Of a stretch of 64,000 nucleotides of DNA, positions 1,923 to 29,131 are shown one piece after another. How positions within the stretch are numbered: position 1 is the stretch's first letter; every line of letters starts with the position of its first letter. Under the pieces are notes generated by a model, which worked only from the letters and a program-made list of their open reading frames with translations, was not told where the DNA came from and searched no databases. The translations under genes were made by a program, and so were the position numbers. Source of the stretch: Patescibacteria group bacterium (lineage in GTDB: Bacteria; Patescibacteriota; Microgenomatia; UBA10105; UBA927); assembly GCA_023379025.1 (NCBI GenBank), contig JAMCTH010000003.1, forward strand, positions 17,114 to 81,113. Reading direction: 5' to 3'.

Positions 1923-3147
1923 AGGTATAGGACATAAGTAAACTCAGGAACAGGGCCGCGCCTACGGCAATATCGACGTACACCACCTCATAGAGCGTTT
2001 GGTGGAAAAGCGATATACATACGGCCTGCGCAACCGCAGAACCGACCGTGAGGATCCAGATAAAGGTATTTCCTGCCGCAAGCTGGATGGAATTGAGGAG
2101 GTTTGCAAGCGTATAAAAAGAGATGAAGATACCAAATAACCCGAGGTACGGCGCCGCCGGGCGGAACGCGGGCCCGAACGGCAGGACGACGATGCCGGGA
2201 ATGAGAAAATACAAGACGGTTATCGCCGATGAGACAAAACCGACGGCCAGAAGCCCGAGCCATACGACCTTTCCGTGCGATGCTTTGAGCTCAGTGCGCT
2301 CGGCGACCAGCGGAAAGATGACAAACTCCACGGCCGAGGAGGCATAAAACACCGCTTTTCCGAGGACGGAGAGCGCCGAGTAGATGCCGGCTTCGCGGCT
2401 TGGGAAATAGTGCTTGACCAAGAGGATGTCCTGGCTGTAGATAAGCGTGATGCCGAAGGTCGTAAGGAGTACCGGCCAGCTATAATGGAACGCTTCATGT
2501 TTCGTCAGCGACAGACGTTCCTGTTTCGCTCTAAAAAGAAATCTGAGGGGGATAAAGGTCGTGAGGTAACTCAAGACACTCGAAACAACGTTGCCCACCA
2601 GCGTCCAGCCGACACCGAAAAAAGCCGCCGGTATGGCGATAAACAGCCGCAGGAAAATACTGATGTTGCCTATGATGCTTGACGCCGTAAAGAACTGAAA
2701 TGCACGGATCGCGGCACTGTTTATGATACTGATGGTGGAAACGGCGAAGATAAGATACAGCCAGATAAAATACACCCTCGAGCGCATATGGAGATAGCCG
2801 GCAACTAACGGAATAAGCGGGAGCGCGATGACGAGTCCTGCGCACTCGAGAAGGAATATGAGCCGGACGGAACGCAGAAGCAGCTGCTTTGCTTCTCCGT
2901 TGGCGTTCCTGGCCTTAAGGACCGAAAAAAATTTCACCATGATGGTCTGGAGCACTCCCGAAGGGACGCTGAGGATATAAAAGAGCGCAAACAGCGCAGC
3001 CAGTTCCGAATACTTGGCAGGACCCAGGATCCTTCCGACCGCCAGGTGATAGAGCCAGGCTCCGAAATTGGCGAAGATCGATCCGATAAAGACGATCGAA
3101 CTGTTTTTGATAAGCGTATGACCGAATAATTTCCTGAGCCGTTCCAT
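1903..3147 (-). CDS. Wzx-like lipid-linked oligosaccharide flippase (MOP superfamily)
   Basis: 414 aa. About 12 predicted TM helices with short loops and no large soluble domain, the size and architecture of polysaccharide biosynthesis flippases. It lies between glycosyltransferase genes. Confidence 0.6.
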   Translation of the reverse strand: MERLRKLFGHTLIKNSSIVFIGSIFANFGAWLYHLAVGRILGPAKYSELAALFALFYILSVPSGVLQTIMVKFFSVLKARNANGEAKQLLLRSVRLIFLLECAGLVIALPLIPLVAGYLHMRSRVYFIWLYLIFAVSTISIINSAAIRAFQFFTASSIIGNISIFLRLFIAIPAAFFGVGWTLVGNVVSSVLSYLTTFIPLRFLFRAKQERLSLTKHEAFHYSWPVLLTTFGITLIYSQDILLVKHYFPSREAGIYSALSVLGKAVFYASSAVEFVIFPLVAERTELKASHGKVVWLGLLAVGFVSSAITVLYFLIPGIVVLPFGPAFRPAAPYLGLFGIFISFYTLANLLNSIQLAAGNTFIWILTVGSAVAQAVCISLFHQTLYEVVYVDIAVGAALFLSLLMSYTYAKIKA

Positions 3148-21540: not shown

Positions 21541-23909
21541 ATAAACCGTTGCTTTCCTTTCTCATACCGCTCGTTTTCGCCGTGAGTATCGTTTCGCTGT
21601 TTTGTTACAAAACGGTCCTCCGGCAGGAAGTTCCGTTCCCCGGTGACCTCCTGGTCGCAGAGTACAATCCGTGGAAAACCTATTCGTTCCTGGGATACGC
21701 TCCGGGCTCCTATCCCAACAAGGCACAGTTTTTTGACACCCTGAGGCAGCTTTACCCGTGGCGGACCCTTGCAACGGAGCTCGCCAAACGCGGGACGCTG
21801 CCCCTGTGGAATCCCCATAATTTTGCCGGAAGCCCGCTCCTTGCCAACTTCCAGTCCGCGGTCCTCTACCCTCTGAATATGCTGTACCTCGCGCTTCCCC
21901 GGGTTCCCGCATGGACGATCCTCACCCTGCTTCAGCCGTTTCTCGCGCTCCTGTTTACCTATCTCTTTCTCAAAAAGCTCGGCGTGTCTTCCGTCCCCGC
22001 GTGGTTCGGAGCCGTAGCATACGCATTTTCTTCTTTCATGACCGTGTGGATCGAGTACAACACCATCGGGCAGGTGATCCTCTGGCTGCCGCTCATTCTC
22101 CTCTCTATCGAACATCTGAGGGGTTTATTTTCCGCTACATGGTATGTGACCGGCATTATCGCCCTGGTCATGGCGGCACTCGCCGGACATCCTCAGGTAT
22201 TTGGTTACCTCTGGGTATTTGCTCTTCTTTACATGCTCTTCCGCTTTCCCGGAAAAAACTACCCCGCGGGTATCGCGATGTTTGCCCTGCCGATTGCCAT
22301 AGCAGGGGCGCAGCTTGTGCCCGGAGCCGAGCTTACCCTCCTTGCCGCGCGGAGCAGTCACACGGCATCGGAGTTCCTTGATAAAATCCTGATCCAGCCA
22401 TGGCAGCTTCTCATGGTACTGGTGCCGGACTTTTTCGGTAGTCCCGCGACGCGTTCCTACTGGCCCGCGGATACGTATGTCGGCAAAGTCACCTCGGTCG
22501 GGCTTGCGGCGCTCCTGTTTGCACTGGGATATATCGCGACGAAGCGGGACAGCCTGACAAAATTTTTTCTCTCGGCAATCGGCGTCGTAATCCTTCTCGT
22601 CACTGCCAATCCCGTCACCGCAGTCATCTACCGCTATCCCGTTCCCTTTATCTCCACGAGCAGTCCGACGCTTATGGTATTTATCGCGGAATTTTCCCTC
22701 GCGGTTCTTGCAGCCCGCGGCATGGACGCATTCCGGAGACATGTATGGAATATCCGCGCCTTCACTCTGGTCATGGCACCTGTCGCGGCTGTCCTGGTTC
22801 TCCTCTGGGCCGGAGTGCTTCTTGCCGGGCATCTTCCTGTTTCCTGGGCGGCGCACCTTCCGGCATCACGCCGGGTGCTCTTCCTTGCTTCCGGCATCAG
22901 TGTGGTTTCCGCCCTTTTATTTCTTACGGCCAGAACCAAACAAAAGTTAATGACACTTATCCTCATCCTTTTTTTCTTCCTTGAGGTTGCGGATCTCTGG
23001 CAGGCATTCCGGAAGTTTACGCCGTTCGTGCCGACCACACTCGTCTACCCGCCGACGTCCGTTACCTTCTATCTTGGGGAACATGCCGGTATCAACCGGT
23101 ATTGGGCGCTTGGCGCCGCATCGATTGAGGCAAATTTTGCGACGCTCCTCGGCCTCTACGCTCCAGAGGGGTATGATCCGCTGTATCCGAAAATCTACGC
23201 GCAGTTTATCGGCGCAAGCCGCACCGGTACGCTGCCTCTATCATTTACGGACAAGACACGCTCGGACGCCGTAATCGCTCCTTCGGACGGGAGCGATCTT
23301 CTCACGAATCCGTTCCGGAGGCGCGTTCTCGATGTTCTGGGAGTGCGGTATATCCTGGACGTGCCGGCTAATCACAACACCGAGTCGACACTTCCCCCGG
23401 ACGTATTCCCGAAACTAGCTGACGTCAACGGCTGGACCGTACTTGAAAACACATCGGCTCTTCCGCGGATGTTCCTCGCCGGAGACGCGATCGCGGCCCG
23501 CGCTCCGGAGCAGTTTGCCCGGGAGTTCTTCTCCCCGTCGTTTGATCCGGGAAAGACGGTAGTTCTTGACCGTCCGCTCCCCATGCCGCTCAGTAACGCG
23601 GCAACAGGCTCCGTACATCTCCGTTCCTATACCGCTGACAGCGTCGAAGCGGAAACCCAAAGCAGCGGAACGAAACTTCTCTTCCTTTCGGATACGTATT
23701 ATCCGGGATGGAAGGCTTATGTGGACGGAAGACCCGCGGAGCTTTACCGCGCAGATTATGCATTCCGCGCGGTCCCGGTGCCCGGCGGCAAGCATACGGT
23801 CGTCATGCGGTACGAGCCGGCATCACTCTGGATCGGTATTGCGATTTCGCTCCTCGGAATTCTTGGTACAATAGCATCAATTGCTCTCTTTCAACGGAAA
23901 ACGGCATGA
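21537..23909 (+). CDS. YfhO-family membrane glycosyltransferase (family E)
   Basis: The N-terminal multi-TM region has LPLWNPHNFAGSPLLANFQSAVLYPLN, a WNPY-F-G motif I recognise as YfhO-like. It also has a large C-terminal domain. The start is trimmed from 21324 to the ATG at 21537, which overlaps the upstream TGA as ATGA. Confidence 0.65.
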   Translation: MNKPLLSFLIPLVFAVSIVSLFCYKTVLRQEVPFPGDLLVAEYNPWKTYSFLGYAPGSYPNKAQFFDTLRQLYPWRTLATELAKRGTLPLWNPHNFAGSPLLANFQSAVLYPLNMLYLALPRVPAWTILTLLQPFLALLFTYLFLKKLGVSSVPAWFGAVAYAFSSFMTVWIEYNTIGQVILWLPLILLSIEHLRGLFSATWYVTGIIALVMAALAGHPQVFGYLWVFALLYMLFRFPGKNYPAGIAMFALPIAIAGAQLVPGAELTLLAARSSHTASEFLDKILIQPWQLLMVLVPDFFGSPATRSYWPADTYVGKVTSVGLAALLFALGYIATKRDSLTKFFLSAIGVVILLVTANPVTAVIYRYPVPFISTSSPTLMVFIAEFSLAVLAARGMDAFRRHVWNIRAFTLVMAPVAAVLVLLWAGVLLAGHLPVSWAAHLPASRRVLFLASGISVVSALLFLTARTKQKLMTLILILFFFLEVADLWQAFRKFTPFVPTTLVYPPTSVTFYLGEHAGINRYWALGAASIEANFATLLGLYAPEGYDPLYPKIYAQFIGASRTGTLPLSFTDKTRSDAVIAPSDGSDLLTNPFRRRVLDVLGVRYILDVPANHNTESTLPPDVFPKLADVNGWTVLENTSALPRMFLAGDAIAARAPEQFAREFFSPSFDPGKTVVLDRPLPMPLSNAATGSVHLRSYTADSVEAETQSSGTKLLFLSDTYYPGWKAYVDGRPAELYRADYAFRAVPVPGGKHTVVMRYEPASLWIGIAISLLGILGTIASIALFQRKTA

Positions 23910-25546
23910 AAAGACTGTTCACGACCAAAAGGAATATGACGGTAACCCTCACGTTTTTCGTGATTCTCGCGATGTCCTTGGCTCTCCGAACCTACCGCTT
24001 AAACGACGTACCGCCAGGGGTCAACCGGGACGAAGCATCCATCGGCTATACCGCCTACTCGCTCCTTCAAACCGGCCGGGATGAGTACGGTCGGTTTCTG
24101 CCGCTTTCATTCGAATCTTTCGGGGACTGGAAACTCCCCCTCTACATCTATCTCACAGTGCCGGTCGTAAAAGTTCTGGGGATGACGGATGTTGCCGTCC
24201 GGACCGTATCGGTTCTTGCCGGGGTCGGAACGGTTGCCCTCACCTTTGTCCTCGTCCGGACGATGTTCGGCAGCGCCGTCCTTTCCCTCCTTTCTATGGC
24301 GGTTCTGGCACTGGCGCCTTGGCACATCCATATTTCCCGGGTCGAATCGGAATCCAATACCGCCGTATTCCTCGTGACCCTCGGGACAATTCTTTTCATA
24401 AAAGGCATACGCAAAAACGCGCCCTATCTCTTTCTGAGCTTTGTCCTCTGGGCGCTCACGTATTTCACCTATGCCGGAAACCATGTATTTACGACACTCT
24501 TTGTCCTGGGGATTCTCGTCCTGTATGTTCCCAGGATCCGCTCATCCCGCCAGGCCAAAATCGGCATCGGCGCATTTCTGGTCCTGGCCGCAGTTATCTT
24601 TTCGCAAACGCTGTTCGGGGCGGACCGGACGAAACTTACCGGCATCAGTATCTTCAACTCCCCGAACGTCATCTACCGGAACATCGATCTCCCGCGGCTG
24701 GATTATGCCGATCCCCGATCGCTTCCGGCAGTTCTTTTTCATAACAAAGTTCTCTATGGCCTAACGACTGCAGTCGAGAATTACGAAAAGGCTTTTTCCG
24801 CACAGTTTCTGACGATCATGGGCGGCACGAATCACGCGCACAATATCGAAGGGTTCGGGAACATGTACCTTGTGGAGTTTCCACTTCTATTCCTCGGGCT
24901 TTTTTGGCTCCTCGGCAAACGGAAAAACGTTCACGCGAAACTTCTCCTCTGGTGGATCCTGATTTCACCGGTCGCCGCGAGCATCACCTCGGATGCGCCG
25001 CACAGCAACCGCATGTTTGCCGTGTTTCCGGCGCTTGCCGTCACGGTCGCGCTCGGGATCTGGTGGATCATGACGGAACTCATTGAAGGGAAAAGATGGC
25101 GGGTCCTCGCTGCCGCAGCGCTCATCCTCACTTATGCCATAAATGTCGGCCAGTACCTGGACCAGTACTACAACCATTTCCCGCTCCACGAGTACCAGTA
25201 CTGGGGGGTAGGGTACCGCAGCGTTGCCGATATGGTAAACAGTCCGGAATACAAAACGGCAAATGTCATCATGTCCCACCCGGAACAGTCGCCATACATC
25301 TTTATGCTCTTTTACGGAAACTACAACCCTGCCCTCTACCGGAAGCAGGCGGTTCGCTACCCACCGACGCCGGACGGGTTTTACCATGTCAGGGCATTCG
25401 GGCGCTACCGGTTCCGGGCAATTGACTGGGGACAGGATATGAAGCTCCACAACACCATCCTGGTCGACGACTACACCGCAATCCCCGACGCCTACCGGGG
25501 AAAAGCCCTGCACCTCAAACAGTTTGGAGTAGTATATTTGAAGTAG
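23906..25546 (+). CDS. Family-D GT39/PMT_2-type membrane glycosyltransferase
   Basis: The motif is NRDEASIGYTAYSLLQTGRDEYG. The start is trimmed from 23708 to the ATG at 23906, which gives an ATGA overlap with the upstream stop. Confidence 0.7.
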   Translation: MKRLFTTKRNMTVTLTFFVILAMSLALRTYRLNDVPPGVNRDEASIGYTAYSLLQTGRDEYGRFLPLSFESFGDWKLPLYIYLTVPVVKVLGMTDVAVRTVSVLAGVGTVALTFVLVRTMFGSAVLSLLSMAVLALAPWHIHISRVESESNTAVFLVTLGTILFIKGIRKNAPYLFLSFVLWALTYFTYAGNHVFTTLFVLGILVLYVPRIRSSRQAKIGIGAFLVLAAVIFSQTLFGADRTKLTGISIFNSPNVIYRNIDLPRLDYADPRSLPAVLFHNKVLYGLTTAVENYEKAFSAQFLTIMGGTNHAHNIEGFGNMYLVEFPLLFLGLFWLLGKRKNVHAKLLLWWILISPVAASITSDAPHSNRMFAVFPALAVTVALGIWWIMTELIEGKRWRVLAAAALILTYAINVGQYLDQYYNHFPLHEYQYWGVGYRSVADMVNSPEYKTANVIMSHPEQSPYIFMLFYGNYNPALYRKQAVRYPPTPDGFYHVRAFGRYRFRAIDWGQDMKLHNTILVDDYTAIPDAYRGKALHLKQFGVVYLK

Positions 25547-25680
25547 CTACTGAAGAAACCTTTAAGTTAATTTTTTTCTCCGAGTCTTTTTCTTCGTTCT
25601 CCACCTAAGGAAATTACTGCCTATCAATACTTTATGGTTACGTCGGAAAAAACCAAGTTGTACGGCGTGAAAAACTGTAG

Positions 25681-25866
25681 TTAGTCAAAAATTACTTTAT
25701 TTGAGGAGTAATTTTTTCTGTAGTTTTCGACAATCTCCATCTGCATCTTGTTAGATTCATGCAAGGCACGTTTAATTATCCGCTTTTTTTCTTTTGCGGG
25801 GTAATCAAAGTATGAACGACCCGTTGATACTTTGCCGGTAAGCTTCCTGATAATATTCCTGATCAT
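25681..25866 (-). CDS. Small basic hypothetical protein (61 aa) coupled to the zeta-like gene
   Basis: It lies in the AT-rich island, and its ATG overlaps the zeta-like 3' ORF stop as ATGA. I recognised no motif. Confidence 0.3.
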   Translation of the reverse strand: MIRNIIRKLTGKVSTGRSYFDYPAKEKKRIIKRALHESNKMQMEIVENYRKNYSSNKVIFD

Positions 25867-26578
25867 ATCTCTAATTTATATTGATCCAATGCCTTAGACA
25901 AGGATTCTGGAGTATACCCCAAATTTACATACTTATCAACATTATGCACGTTAAAATCAGACTTTTCAATACCCTTCAGTATGTTCTTCTTAATAACAGT
26001 AACCTCTATTTCTGGGTATACTCGCTTAATTTTGGCTACTGTATCTAAGGCGTCAAAAAAAGATTTTAGAAAAAATCCTTGGGTATAGGTCTTCCTTCTA
26101 ATTTTTCTCTTTTTTTTGTTAATCCCCACGATACCAACGGATCTTGATAAATATATACAATTGATATTTTACGCTTATGCTTAATACACCTTTTAATATT
26201 AGCTTCTGCATGATCATATTGAGACATTGTGGAGTCAAGCAAAAAATCAATATCATTTGCAAATACATGGTCAAGTAATTTGTTTACCCCCGCATAAGCC
26301 GCACCCTGAATTTCCATAGCATTTGTCTTATTGTATTGCGGAAGGAAATCCCTTATTTCATCGGCATCTATCCGAACAATATGGCGTGAATTATCATGTT
26401 CACATAGCTGCTGAATAAAGGCTTTAGAATATTCAGTTTTTCCAGCACCTGGAGAGCCAGACATAAAGAATGCTGCGGGGTTCGAAACTGTTAGATAAAT
26501 ATCGGGATCAGCGAAACGTTTAATGAGTTCCTTCTTGTGAGATCTAATAAACAGTACGGCATCATCACTTTTACTCAT
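25863..26578 (-). pseudogene. Zeta-toxin-family P-loop kinase gene interrupted by a -1 frameshift (or slippage site)
   Basis: The 5' ORF 26066..26578 has a Walker A motif GSPGAGKT and an RIDADEIRDFLPQY segment like zeta/PezT. Its 3' continuation is a second ORF, 25863..26129, in the -1 frame. The two frames meet at an A8 run, acaaaaaaaagag. Confidence 0.6.
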
Positions 26579-26735
26579 TGCGGTTAATTATACAACATGA
26601 TTATTTAGCAAACCTATCTGTAGGTAATTCACCATACGCTCTGTCGATAAGAATCGATACAACTCCACCCACGAGGCTATGTCTGTGTTCGAAAATCACT
26701 CCCTCCGCCTCGTCTCCTCAAAAAAACTATCCTGC

Positions 26736-28214
26736 TTATTTCTTCCACTCTTCCGTTGCGCGGTAGACGGATTCGGCTGTGACCGGTATCCATCCTGCCC
26801 GGGAGAGTTCGGCGCTGGTCGAGCTGGTCAGGTCCACCACCTGGTACCCGAGTTCTTCCCCGGCAGCAACCGGACGTTTGAAGCGCCCCGAGTAGGTTGC
26901 GATCCCGACTCCCATGGCAAGTCCGTCCGCGGAAAGTTTCCCCGAGGCATCCAGGTAGAGAGCAAGCGGTGCACTGACTCCTACGGTTTTGTACTTGAAA
27001 TCATAAACGGCAAATGTTTTTCCCGGGTAATCAGTGATAAGCTTGTTCGCCCAGCCACCGGTTTGAATCGCCGTGAAGTTTGATGCCTTCGCAATCTGTT
27101 GGACCGATGCCCACACCGAAAGCATAACTACTGCCGCGGTTATCGCGACACCAAGACTTTTTTGCCAGCGGATGAGCCGCGATAGCACCCAAGCCGAGGC
27201 AAGGATTACGAACGGGTGCGCGAATACGAGATAGCTGGAAAAAAGCGGGGTCCGTACATACCGGAGCGAGAGAATGAAAAGGAGAAGCGAACCCAGTATG
27301 TACCCCCAGTATTTCGGCAGATCCCGGCGCAGGGCGGAGACGGCAGCGGAAACCCCTACTCCTCCCATCAGCGCCATACCGACCCACTTATTTCCTCCGG
27401 TTATCAATCCCCATTCCCCCGGCCAGAAAGAAACGAGGTAGGTAAGCCATCTTCTTCCGAGCATTTCATAGGTCACACGGTACTGGCCTACCGTGTAGTA
27501 GCCGATAAACCCGCGGACATTGATAAACTGGTGCAAAAGGTCAAAAAGAACAAGCGGCAGTAACGGAAGCGTGAAACCGACGAGAAAGAGTGCCGTTGCT
27601 GTCGTTCCGGGAAACCCCCAGAGGAGGACGAGTACCGGAAGGGTAAAAAGAAGTGCCGCGCCTTCCAGGTGTATACTCGCCGAAAGCGCAATGAGAAAAC
27701 CCGTAAGGAAAAGGTACCGGGCCTGTCTGGTTTTTCCCCACCGGATACCCGCCCAGATGACCCCGAGGGCGCAGAGCCCAAGCGGCGACTGGTTTGTGAG
27801 ATTTACGGACTGCCCGATCGCGGCGGTTGATACCGCGGCCAACGCTCCTGCGATAAGTCCCAGGCGCGGGCTTTCCATTTCGCGCCCCACCATGTAGATC
27901 ATAAATACAAACAATACGGACAGGCACGTCATGGCAACCCATGGTGCAATAAGTTCTCCACGCCCTAAAAACGTTCCGGCCATGATGAACCAGTACCATT
28001 CCCCTCCGGTCTGGAACGGTCCGGCGGAAGAAAACGGACCCAAAAGCGGAAGTTTATGGGCCGCCAGGGCAAACCGCGAAAGGAGTGCGTCATGCGCCTG
28101 GTCATAGGCAAGCCCCCAGCGGGACGGATAGTCCACAAACCGTAAAAGAACGGAAGCAAGGAGAATCAGGGGAAGAAACAGACGGTCACGGCTTACCGGG
28201 GTAGATCGTTTCAT
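26736..28214 (-). CDS. Family-C GT-C fold membrane glycosyltransferase
   Basis: The loop-1 motif is YDQAHDALLSRF...LLGPFSSAGPFQTGGEWYW. The start is trimmed from 28373 to Met54 at 28214, which gives an ATGA overlap with the upstream GT2 gene's stop. Confidence 0.55.
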   Translation of the reverse strand: MKRSTPVSRDRLFLPLILLASVLLRFVDYPSRWGLAYDQAHDALLSRFALAAHKLPLLGPFSSAGPFQTGGEWYWFIMAGTFLGRGELIAPWVAMTCLSVLFVFMIYMVGREMESPRLGLIAGALAAVSTAAIGQSVNLTNQSPLGLCALGVIWAGIRWGKTRQARYLFLTGFLIALSASIHLEGAALLFTLPVLVLLWGFPGTTATALFLVGFTLPLLPLVLFDLLHQFINVRGFIGYYTVGQYRVTYEMLGRRWLTYLVSFWPGEWGLITGGNKWVGMALMGGVGVSAAVSALRRDLPKYWGYILGSLLLFILSLRYVRTPLFSSYLVFAHPFVILASAWVLSRLIRWQKSLGVAITAAVVMLSVWASVQQIAKASNFTAIQTGGWANKLITDYPGKTFAVYDFKYKTVGVSAPLALYLDASGKLSADGLAMGVGIATYSGRFKRPVAAGEELGYQVVDLTSSTSAELSRAGWIPVTAESVYRATEEWKK

Positions 28215-29131
28215 GGTTCGGATAGGAGTCGTCTGTCGGAAACAGCTGCCGATGCGGCGGCGCATTTCCTGCTTCGGAGTATCGCGGGACAGAGGATACA
28301 CGCGCGGGCAAACCCCAGAAGCATCGGCATGTCTCCTCGAAAGACTGCACGGATCAGATGGTACGGAAGCCACAGAAGGTGGCTCATCATGAGCCCCGTG
28401 TCCGTAATGTTTTTCCAGATAAAGATATACTGGTTCCGGTATGCAATAGTTGAAACCGTATTCCCGGAAAACTTCTGCCGGATAGCACCGGTCTCATGGT
28501 AGTGCCGGACAACGCTTTTTCCTTCAAACGCTATCCGGTACCCTGCTTTCCGCGCGCGGTAGGAGAGATCTATATCTTCCCAGTAAAATGGATTGTACAG
28601 AAGATCCATTCCGCCCAGCCGGTCCCAGATGTCTTTACGGAACATCGCGCTCCCGCCGGAGGCCCAGGATGTGTCGCTTCGACCGGTGTCTCCTCTCCGG
28701 TGTACTGCCACACCCCGCTGCCATGTCATGATTCCCCGGCCGCGCTCAACGGTCTGCCCGTGTTCCATGCTTTTATCGAGAAACCCGACGGCGAACATAT
28801 CCGGATCGGAGAAATGAGCGATGCCGGGAGGCAGATAATCCTTCTCCGGCTCAATATCACTATTGAGAAGTACGACTATCGGCGTCGTACTTTCGGCAAC
28901 ACCGCTATTGACTGCCGCGGCAAATCCTCCGCGTGTTCTCCGGCGGATGACACGTATGTCGGGAAACTTCCCGGCAAGATAGGTGCCGGTGCCGTCATCG
29001 GAAGCATCATCAACCACAACGATCCTGCTTTTGCCGGAGTAAGCAAAGACCCGCGGGAGATGTTTTATGAGGAGCTCCTTCCCGTTCCAGGTCGGGATAA
29101 CGATGGTGATATCTTTTGTCGTGTAGTTCAT
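28211..29131 (-). CDS. GT2-family glycosyltransferase
   Basis: 306 aa with ITIVIPTWNG and VVVDDASDDGT GT-A motifs. Confidence 0.75.
   Translation of the reverse strand: MNYTTKDITIVIPTWNGKELLIKHLPRVFAYSGKSRIVVVDDASDDGTGTYLAGKFPDIRVIRRRTRGGFAAAVNSGVAESTTPIVVLLNSDIEPEKDYLPPGIAHFSDPDMFAVGFLDKSMEHGQTVERGRGIMTWQRGVAVHRRGDTGRSDTSWASGGSAMFRKDIWDRLGGMDLLYNPFYWEDIDLSYRARKAGYRIAFEGKSVVRHYHETGAIRQKFSGNTVSTIAYRNQYIFIWKNITDTGLMMSHLLWLPYHLIRAVFRGDMPMLLGFARACILCPAILRSRKCAAASAAVSDRRLLSEP

Follow-up and report, generated by a model that had tools for sequence, protein, structure and literature searches.

A probable recent one-base deletion in a T-run interrupts a zeta-like kinase gene in a Patescibacteria genome

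The closest described systems to the locus considered here are the zeta toxins and PezT, the latter with D66 and R157 as essential residues. The locus shares with them the Pfam family (Zeta_toxin, PF06414), the fold, the Walker A motif and the aligned catalytic residues, although the identity is only 13–16% and a toxin role is here putative. A second described pair is AvrRxo1-ORF1:ORF2 (4z8q and related structures), in which a protein with a zeta-like kinase fold (Foldseek E = 2e-6, TMq 0.59) was solved as a complex with a small partner. AvrRxo1-ORF2 is encoded downstream of its kinase, and the gene order of the present locus recalls that of AvrRxo1-ORF1/ORF2; in contrast, AvrRxo1 is a larger protein that serves as a type III effector, and the 61-aa ORF that follows the kinase here has no detected similarity to any solved chain.

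The window is a stretch of 64,000 nt from a Patescibacteria group bacterium (GCA_023379025.1, contig JAMCTH010000003.1), and the kinase gene lies on its minus strand as two overlapping ORFs. The 5' ORF (26066..26578) encodes 170 aa, the N-terminal 71% of a Zeta_toxin-family P-loop kinase, and includes Walker A GSPGAGKT, RIDADE, LLDST and the conserved KKREKLEGR; its product terminates with ...WGLTKKREKLEGRPIPKDFF at the stop codon and corresponds exactly to NCBI MCL4359719.1, a Patescibacteria group bacterium entry whose annotation is zeta toxin family protein. The second ORF, of 88 aa (25863..26129, minus strand), is read from the sequence in the -1 frame from a GTG start and overlaps the first by 64 nt. 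The preliminary description had reported this pair of ORFs with the same boundaries, which are confirmed from the sequence, and had estimated a fused product of normal size; in fact, the joined halves give 238 aa, and the family norm is 232–243 aa, the range of most of the 341 relatives returned by the protein search.

Membership in the Zeta_toxin family is indicated by scores of 101.8 bits for the 5' ORF by itself and 114.4 bits for the halves joined at a T-run (see below), against a gathering threshold of 22.3 bits, while NCBIfam and PADLOC give below-threshold matches only. The Walker A motif occupies residues 41–48, and the family profile matches PezT (E = 1e-6) with D73 corresponding to PezT D66, D115/T117 to the PezT E/T residues and R157 to PezT R157; Walker A, D73 and R157 are invariant in the family. 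The AlphaFold2 model of the repaired 238-aa protein (pLDDT 92, pTM 0.88) has its best PDB fold matches in zeta (1gvn, 3q8x) and PezT (2p5t), with TM values of 0.65–0.70, followed by AvrRxo1-ORF1 and Neisseria zeta_1. In this model, residues 171–238 form most of helix 167–187, strands 192–199 and 203–208, and two C-terminal helices. The protein is a zeta-like P-loop kinase, distantly related to the toxins that have been studied.

Two homopolymers in the 64-nt overlap are candidates for the site at which the frame changes. The first, on which the preliminary description placed the frameshift, is the A8 run at 26110..26117 (minus strand), whose frame-0 codons ACA AAA AAA AGA (Thr-Lys-Lys-Arg) do contain, as described, the heptamer A AAA AAA. 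The second, 35 nt past the A8, is a T6 run (26070..26075, minus strand) that with the following C constitutes the frame-0 heptamer T TTT TTC (26069..26075), immediately 3' of which is the premature frame-0 stop TAA (26066..26068). The alignment of the relatives, which in a single frame read ...W.FTKKREKLEGR.[IV]PK..F[IV]..FF.A...V.KIK... and carry TKKREKLEGRPIPKDFF[IL]KSFF, places the change at the second site: frame 0 of the window agrees with them through the A8 up to ...PKDFF, with a residue-for-residue match over TKKREKLEGRPIPKDFF, and beyond ...PKDFF they match the -1 frame of the window, LKSFFDALDTVAKIK.

At the nucleotide level the comparison is with GCA_030646945.1 (L003; 71% identical, single intact ORF), which is the closest relative having DNA; for P0001, the nearest relative at the protein level, no DNA is retrievable. 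Where the window reads GAT TTT TTC TAA AAT C, L003 reads GAT TTT TTT ATA AAA TCA, that is, T6 versus T7, one T fewer in the window. The homopolymer comparison with relatives that the preliminary description had proposed thus finds the difference in length in the T-run, while the position of the A8 reads ACT AAG AAA AGA in L003 with the frame unchanged; in the window, the A8 is ordinary in-frame coding sequence. Because the relatives hold frame 0 through the A8 and L003 reads T7, the frame change is assigned to the T6 and not to the A8. With one T restored, the window has an uninterrupted ORF of 238 codons, and, as judged from the aligned sequences, the lesion at 26070..26075 consists in the loss of one base from a T7 run, which leaves T6. 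The 3' coding segment in the -1 frame (25863..26069, minus strand), which covers residues 171–238 and the TGA stop, is still open and keeps all the family-conserved residues.

The consequences of a slip at the A8 can be read from the same alignment. A -1 slippage at A AAA AAA, programmed or accidental, could in principle fuse the two ORFs into a functional toxin, as the heptamer is slippery and in frame, the -1 frame is open from there onward and the product would have 238 aa. However, this slip exchanges REKLEGRPIPKD for KRKIRRKTYTQG in a region where TKKRE is conserved among the relatives, with the loss of the invariant R157, E158 and R163 and of the nearly invariant E161 and G162, R157 being the residue of the kinase that aligns with PezT R157; moreover, the halves joined at the A8 score 89.9 bits with PF06414, less than the truncated 5' ORF alone, and the relatives remain in frame 0 across the run. 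A functional fusion made at the A8 is hardly credible. The preliminary description is right, therefore, about a split zeta-family gene with its 3' ORF in the -1 frame, and the part of it that falls is the slippery A8 site, where relatives stay in frame 0. The main value of the present analysis lies in this correction, a real frameshift having been attributed to the wrong homopolymer: read pile-ups and reporters belong at 26070..26075, and the suggested inspection of reads for A7 or A9 is aimed at the other run. More generally, an in-frame slippery heptamer within an ORF overlap is weak evidence of recoding unless relatives are compared. In the window, there are 42 homopolymers of at least 7 nt, six of them of 8 nt, and nearly all are of A or T despite 53% GC; the two strands together carry 66 copies of TTTTTTC, where dinucleotide shuffles lead one to expect 16.9 ± 3.6. 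Neither the A8 nor T TTT TTC is remarkable by count in the window.

The heptamer found at the T-run is prone to shifting in E. coli. There U_UU.U_UU.C ranks with the more efficient -1 heptamers, belongs to the patterns listed as exceeding 0.10% with no stimulator present, and serves some IS elements (PMC4066793). Whatever the frame, E. coli genes contain fewer runs of seven U or seven A than expected, and a high indel rate is one possible reason suggested for their scarcity (PMC4066793); a T7 run would in that case be a mutational hotspot. The unprogrammed -1 suppression of 1-bp deletions amounts in aggregate to 1–10% in E. coli test cases (PMC10861913), and the concept of the 'savior indel' is described in PMC5009743.

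At the locus, T TTT TTC has the form X XXY YYZ, is in frame 0 and coincides with the frame junction, and a tandem slip on it yields ...KDFFLKSFF..., the same as the repaired protein; nevertheless, whenever a T7 run in this phase loses one T, such a heptamer is left behind. Relatives do not share the split: the gene is a single intact ORF in 79 of the 81 with DNA (78 of 80 species-representative loci, plus L003). The two exceptions are L039, frameshifted near residue 188 (at about 3040..3080), and L009, in which unrelated sequence containing the hairpin CCACGGGTTTACACCCGTGG replaces the gene after ...PKKTF, at residue ~170 (about 3000..3060). A further member (L155 2501..3076, protein P0079) carries a clean in-frame deletion of approximately residues 171–216 in two assemblies. 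Damaged or shortened members of the family are hit at or after residue ~170, a distribution that may be subject to ascertainment bias, the searches having been anchored on N-terminal motifs.

A downstream hairpin or pseudoknot, the stimulator that the preliminary description had suggested looking for, was not found in the folds of the region: over the 94 nt from the site, folding is no more stable than in shuffled sequences (z = -1.5), the T-run is itself part of the nearest hairpin, a second hairpin, with a loop of 29 nt, lies over 20 nt further downstream, and in a wider fold (z = -2.0) the A and T runs pair with each other. An Rfam scan with E up to 1 gave no match. The purine-rich GAAGGAAG upstream consists of the conserved EGR codons and is present also in the intact L003, so that it is no dedicated Shine-Dalgarno-like element. 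Programmed -1 frameshifting, one of the explanations put forward in the preliminary description, is unsupported, the heptamer being the sole mark of a programmed site that is present.

Infrequent -1 slippage on U UUU UUC before the UAA could supply a little of the ancestral 238-aa kinase, that is, a toxic enzyme held at low dose, with only the shifted ribosomes coupling to the partner ORF at ATGA. The heptamer in the correct frame, the identity of the slipped product with the repaired protein, the efficiency of U_UU.U_UU.C in E. coli without stimulators (PMC4066793), the precedent of 1–10% unprogrammed suppression (PMC10861913) and the undecayed 3' segment all agree with such a functional leaky gene; in fact, an intact 3' segment with an in-frame heptamer beside the stop is also expected of this arrangement. 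Against it stand the origin of the heptamer in any such deletion, the 66 copies of TTTTTTC in the window, the intact gene of 79 of the 81 relatives, the closest of which reads T7 in frame, the absence of a stimulatory structure, and the reduction of GAAGGAAG to EGR codons shared with an intact relative; we consider a functional leaky arrangement, of 'savior-indel' type, improbable. Slightly less probable still is that the T6 has been kept by selection as an attenuator, with rare slippage giving a trace of full-length kinase and the coupling at ATGA preserving the kinase-to-partner ratio at very low dose; if true, a toxin-like module in Patescibacteria would here carry a 'savior indel'. A trace of full-length kinase from unprogrammed -1 slippage is plausible, and nothing indicates selection for leakiness.

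A one-base change in the length of a homopolymer is also the classic type of sequencing or assembly error; the window comes from a metagenome-assembled genome and its 3' segment is fully intact, as expected if the true genome had T7 and a single intact 238-codon gene. The T6 is, however, included in two Logan contigs that are 100% identical to the window, one of 82 kb (SRR10278331, over 6513 nt) and one of 1.7 kb with host flank (SRR10252151, over 1669 nt), and is thus present in three assemblies, of which the two Logan contigs come from different runs, though not necessarily from independent samples. A one-off assembly error is unlikely because the two Logan assemblies from other runs share the T6. 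A run of 6–7 bases is, in addition, short for a systematic short-read error, and an error as the source of the split is given a small probability; a systematic homopolymer error or a mixed T6/T7 population may still lie behind the assembled T6.

The same data bear on phase variation, in which slipped-strand mispairing in the T-run would turn expression of the kinase off (T6) and on (T7) among the cells of one population. A lesion located in a homopolymer, in a gene otherwise intact, fits this mechanism, but a run of 6–7 T is short for a contingency locus, both additional assemblies have T6 only, and the T7 allele of the window sequence was not found in the JGI metagenomes or in the protein collection searched. 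In particular, the scan of JGI metagenomes for the T7 allele or a very close relative gave one weak partial relative, and the C-terminal 108 aa, used as query in a word-indexed protein search, retrieved the ORF of the window itself and nothing else; the small ORF, queried in the same way, gave two proteins. Phase variation is regarded as very improbable, below either of the roles proposed for slippage. A 1.6-kb contig of a third run (L085, SRR22388171), which matches the last 41 kinase codons and the small ORF of the window with 93% identity, begins downstream of the T-run, whose length it does not cover; none of the papers in the collection searched names the three run accessions.

The age of the lesion can be estimated from the sequence that follows it. 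In the 68 codons past the lesion there is neither a stop nor an indel, and F174, F175, A177, V181, K185, L195, K198, K206, Y222 and L227 are all kept; the additional disabling mutations that the preliminary description had envisaged downstream are lacking in these codons, as is any other sign of decay sought there (stops, indels, loss of conserved residues). The comparison with L085 over 41 codons gives five synonymous and three non-synonymous differences (pN/pS 0.031/0.201), with zero non-synonymous differences in the first 31. A weak hint of decay comes from the ratio of C- to N-terminal identity, which goes down from 0.81 in intact pairs to 0.69 in pairs that include the window, a difference of about 1 SD. 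Because the 3' segment is open and without visible decay, the lesion appears to be recent. The gene displays what is expected of a recent pseudogene, namely a defined lesion with respect to an intact orthologue, found identical in two further assemblies from samples that may not be independent. Taking these data together, the locus is probably explained by a real and recent one-base homopolymer deletion (T7 to T6), which struck a two-gene module of kinase and partner gained by horizontal transfer. Among the three explanations offered in the preliminary description, a true inactivating mutation is accordingly the best supported; a sequencing error is less likely, and programmed frameshifting is not supported.

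According to the proposed mechanism, the loss of one T in the homopolymer would break the frame of the kinase, translation would end at the TAA right after residue 170 and the last 68 residues would be missing, a part that in the model comprises a long helix and the fifth core strand; as a result, the kinase would be inactive, or its full-length form would be produced only in trace through unprogrammed -1 slippage. The 170-aa product is probably non-functional because strand 192–199 is probably the fifth core strand, and, on the basis of the model, loss of function is its most likely fate. Two observations count against this conclusion: the 170-aa product retains Walker A, the catalytic Asp and the conserved arginines, and a relative with the in-frame deletion of residues ~171–216 exists naturally.

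The kinase gene is followed on the minus strand by an intact 61-aa ORF (25681..25866; tblastn and locus comparison), whose ATG overlaps the kinase stop in the sequence ATGA. Homologues detected by tblastn lie directly downstream of the kinase in most of the 80 loci of the relatives; of 79 loci, 75 have an ORF of 35–110 aa after the kinase, and in 41 of them the two genes share the same 4 nt. The small ORF has 45–65 aa among the relatives. The preliminary description considered the kinase a possible orphan toxin, a definition that does not suit a gene with a conserved and intact partner ORF. The consensus of the small ORF is FF.L...EKK.II..A...ANK.Q..L...Y; its 32 homologues have no consistent Pfam match, its profile finds no PDB chain below E = 0.4, and neither the Pfam nor the PDB comparison relates it to epsilon or PezA. 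The exact 61-aa sequence is present in the Logan gene calls only and not in NCBI, within the collection searched, and neither the kinase nor the small ORF has a paralogue elsewhere in the window. The small ORF looks like an uncharacterised partner family, located downstream unlike the arrangement of epsilon/zeta; it may act as an antitoxin or regulator, and kinase and small ORF would then constitute a putative toxin/partner module with coupled translation. Zeta-like kinases are widespread in Patescibacteria with a conserved small downstream ORF, in a gene order unlike the canonical epsilon/zeta.

The two genes alone occupy an AT-rich island of 1.2 kb (25550..26735; 36.3% GC, against 53.2% GC for the window), which in the Logan gene calls is bordered by a PMT_2-like gene on the glycosyltransferase side (26736..28373, minus strand) and by a convergent gene for a 612-aa membrane protein (23708..25546, plus strand). 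DNA homology to L003 spans 26592..25741 only, and around the island the search for insertion footprints found short repeats at chance level only and no terminator. The module of L003 is also AT-rich (33% GC, in a locus of 44.5% GC). In L085 (1..1637), the 93%-identical end of the module is beside a gene for an unknown protein of 245 aa and a Terminase_2 gene (small terminase), and 69 more distant relatives of the kinase (L086-L154, 24–45% identical) are located on IMG/VR viral contigs. From the GC content of the island, the limits of the homology to L003, the terminase neighbour in L085 and the relatives on viral contigs, the module is mobile and was probably acquired recently, and the kinase family may travel on phages of Patescibacteria. 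Upstream of the kinase (26579..26605, minus strand), a TATAAT hexamer is 8 nt from the ATG in ...TTGTATAATTAACCGCAATG, a segment with no visible Shine-Dalgarno sequence; the mRNA of the kinase may be nearly leaderless.

The comparison with known systems can be extended from the kinase to the organization of the locus and to the nature of its split. In epsilon/zeta (PezAT) the antitoxin is encoded directly upstream in the same operon and neutralises a toxin that phosphorylates UDP-N-acetylglucosamine, whereas here 157 nt of non-coding sequence and then the PMT_2-like gene are found upstream, a small unrelated ORF is downstream and overlaps the kinase stop, and the kinase gene of this copy is frameshifted. 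Programmed sites such as dnaX (A AAA AAG) and those of the IS3 family (A AAA AAG, U UUU UUC) resemble the T-run in having an X XXY YYZ heptamer in the 0 frame at the junction and near a 0-frame stop; unlike them, the split described here is not conserved and is accompanied neither by a downstream hairpin or pseudoknot nor by an upstream Shine-Dalgarno-like element. The likeness is closer to homopolymer-indel pseudogenes, which share the same single-base change in a T7 run, the prompt premature stop and the location in a recently acquired accessory gene, and from which the present locus is distinguished solely by the residual in-frame heptamer prone to shifting.
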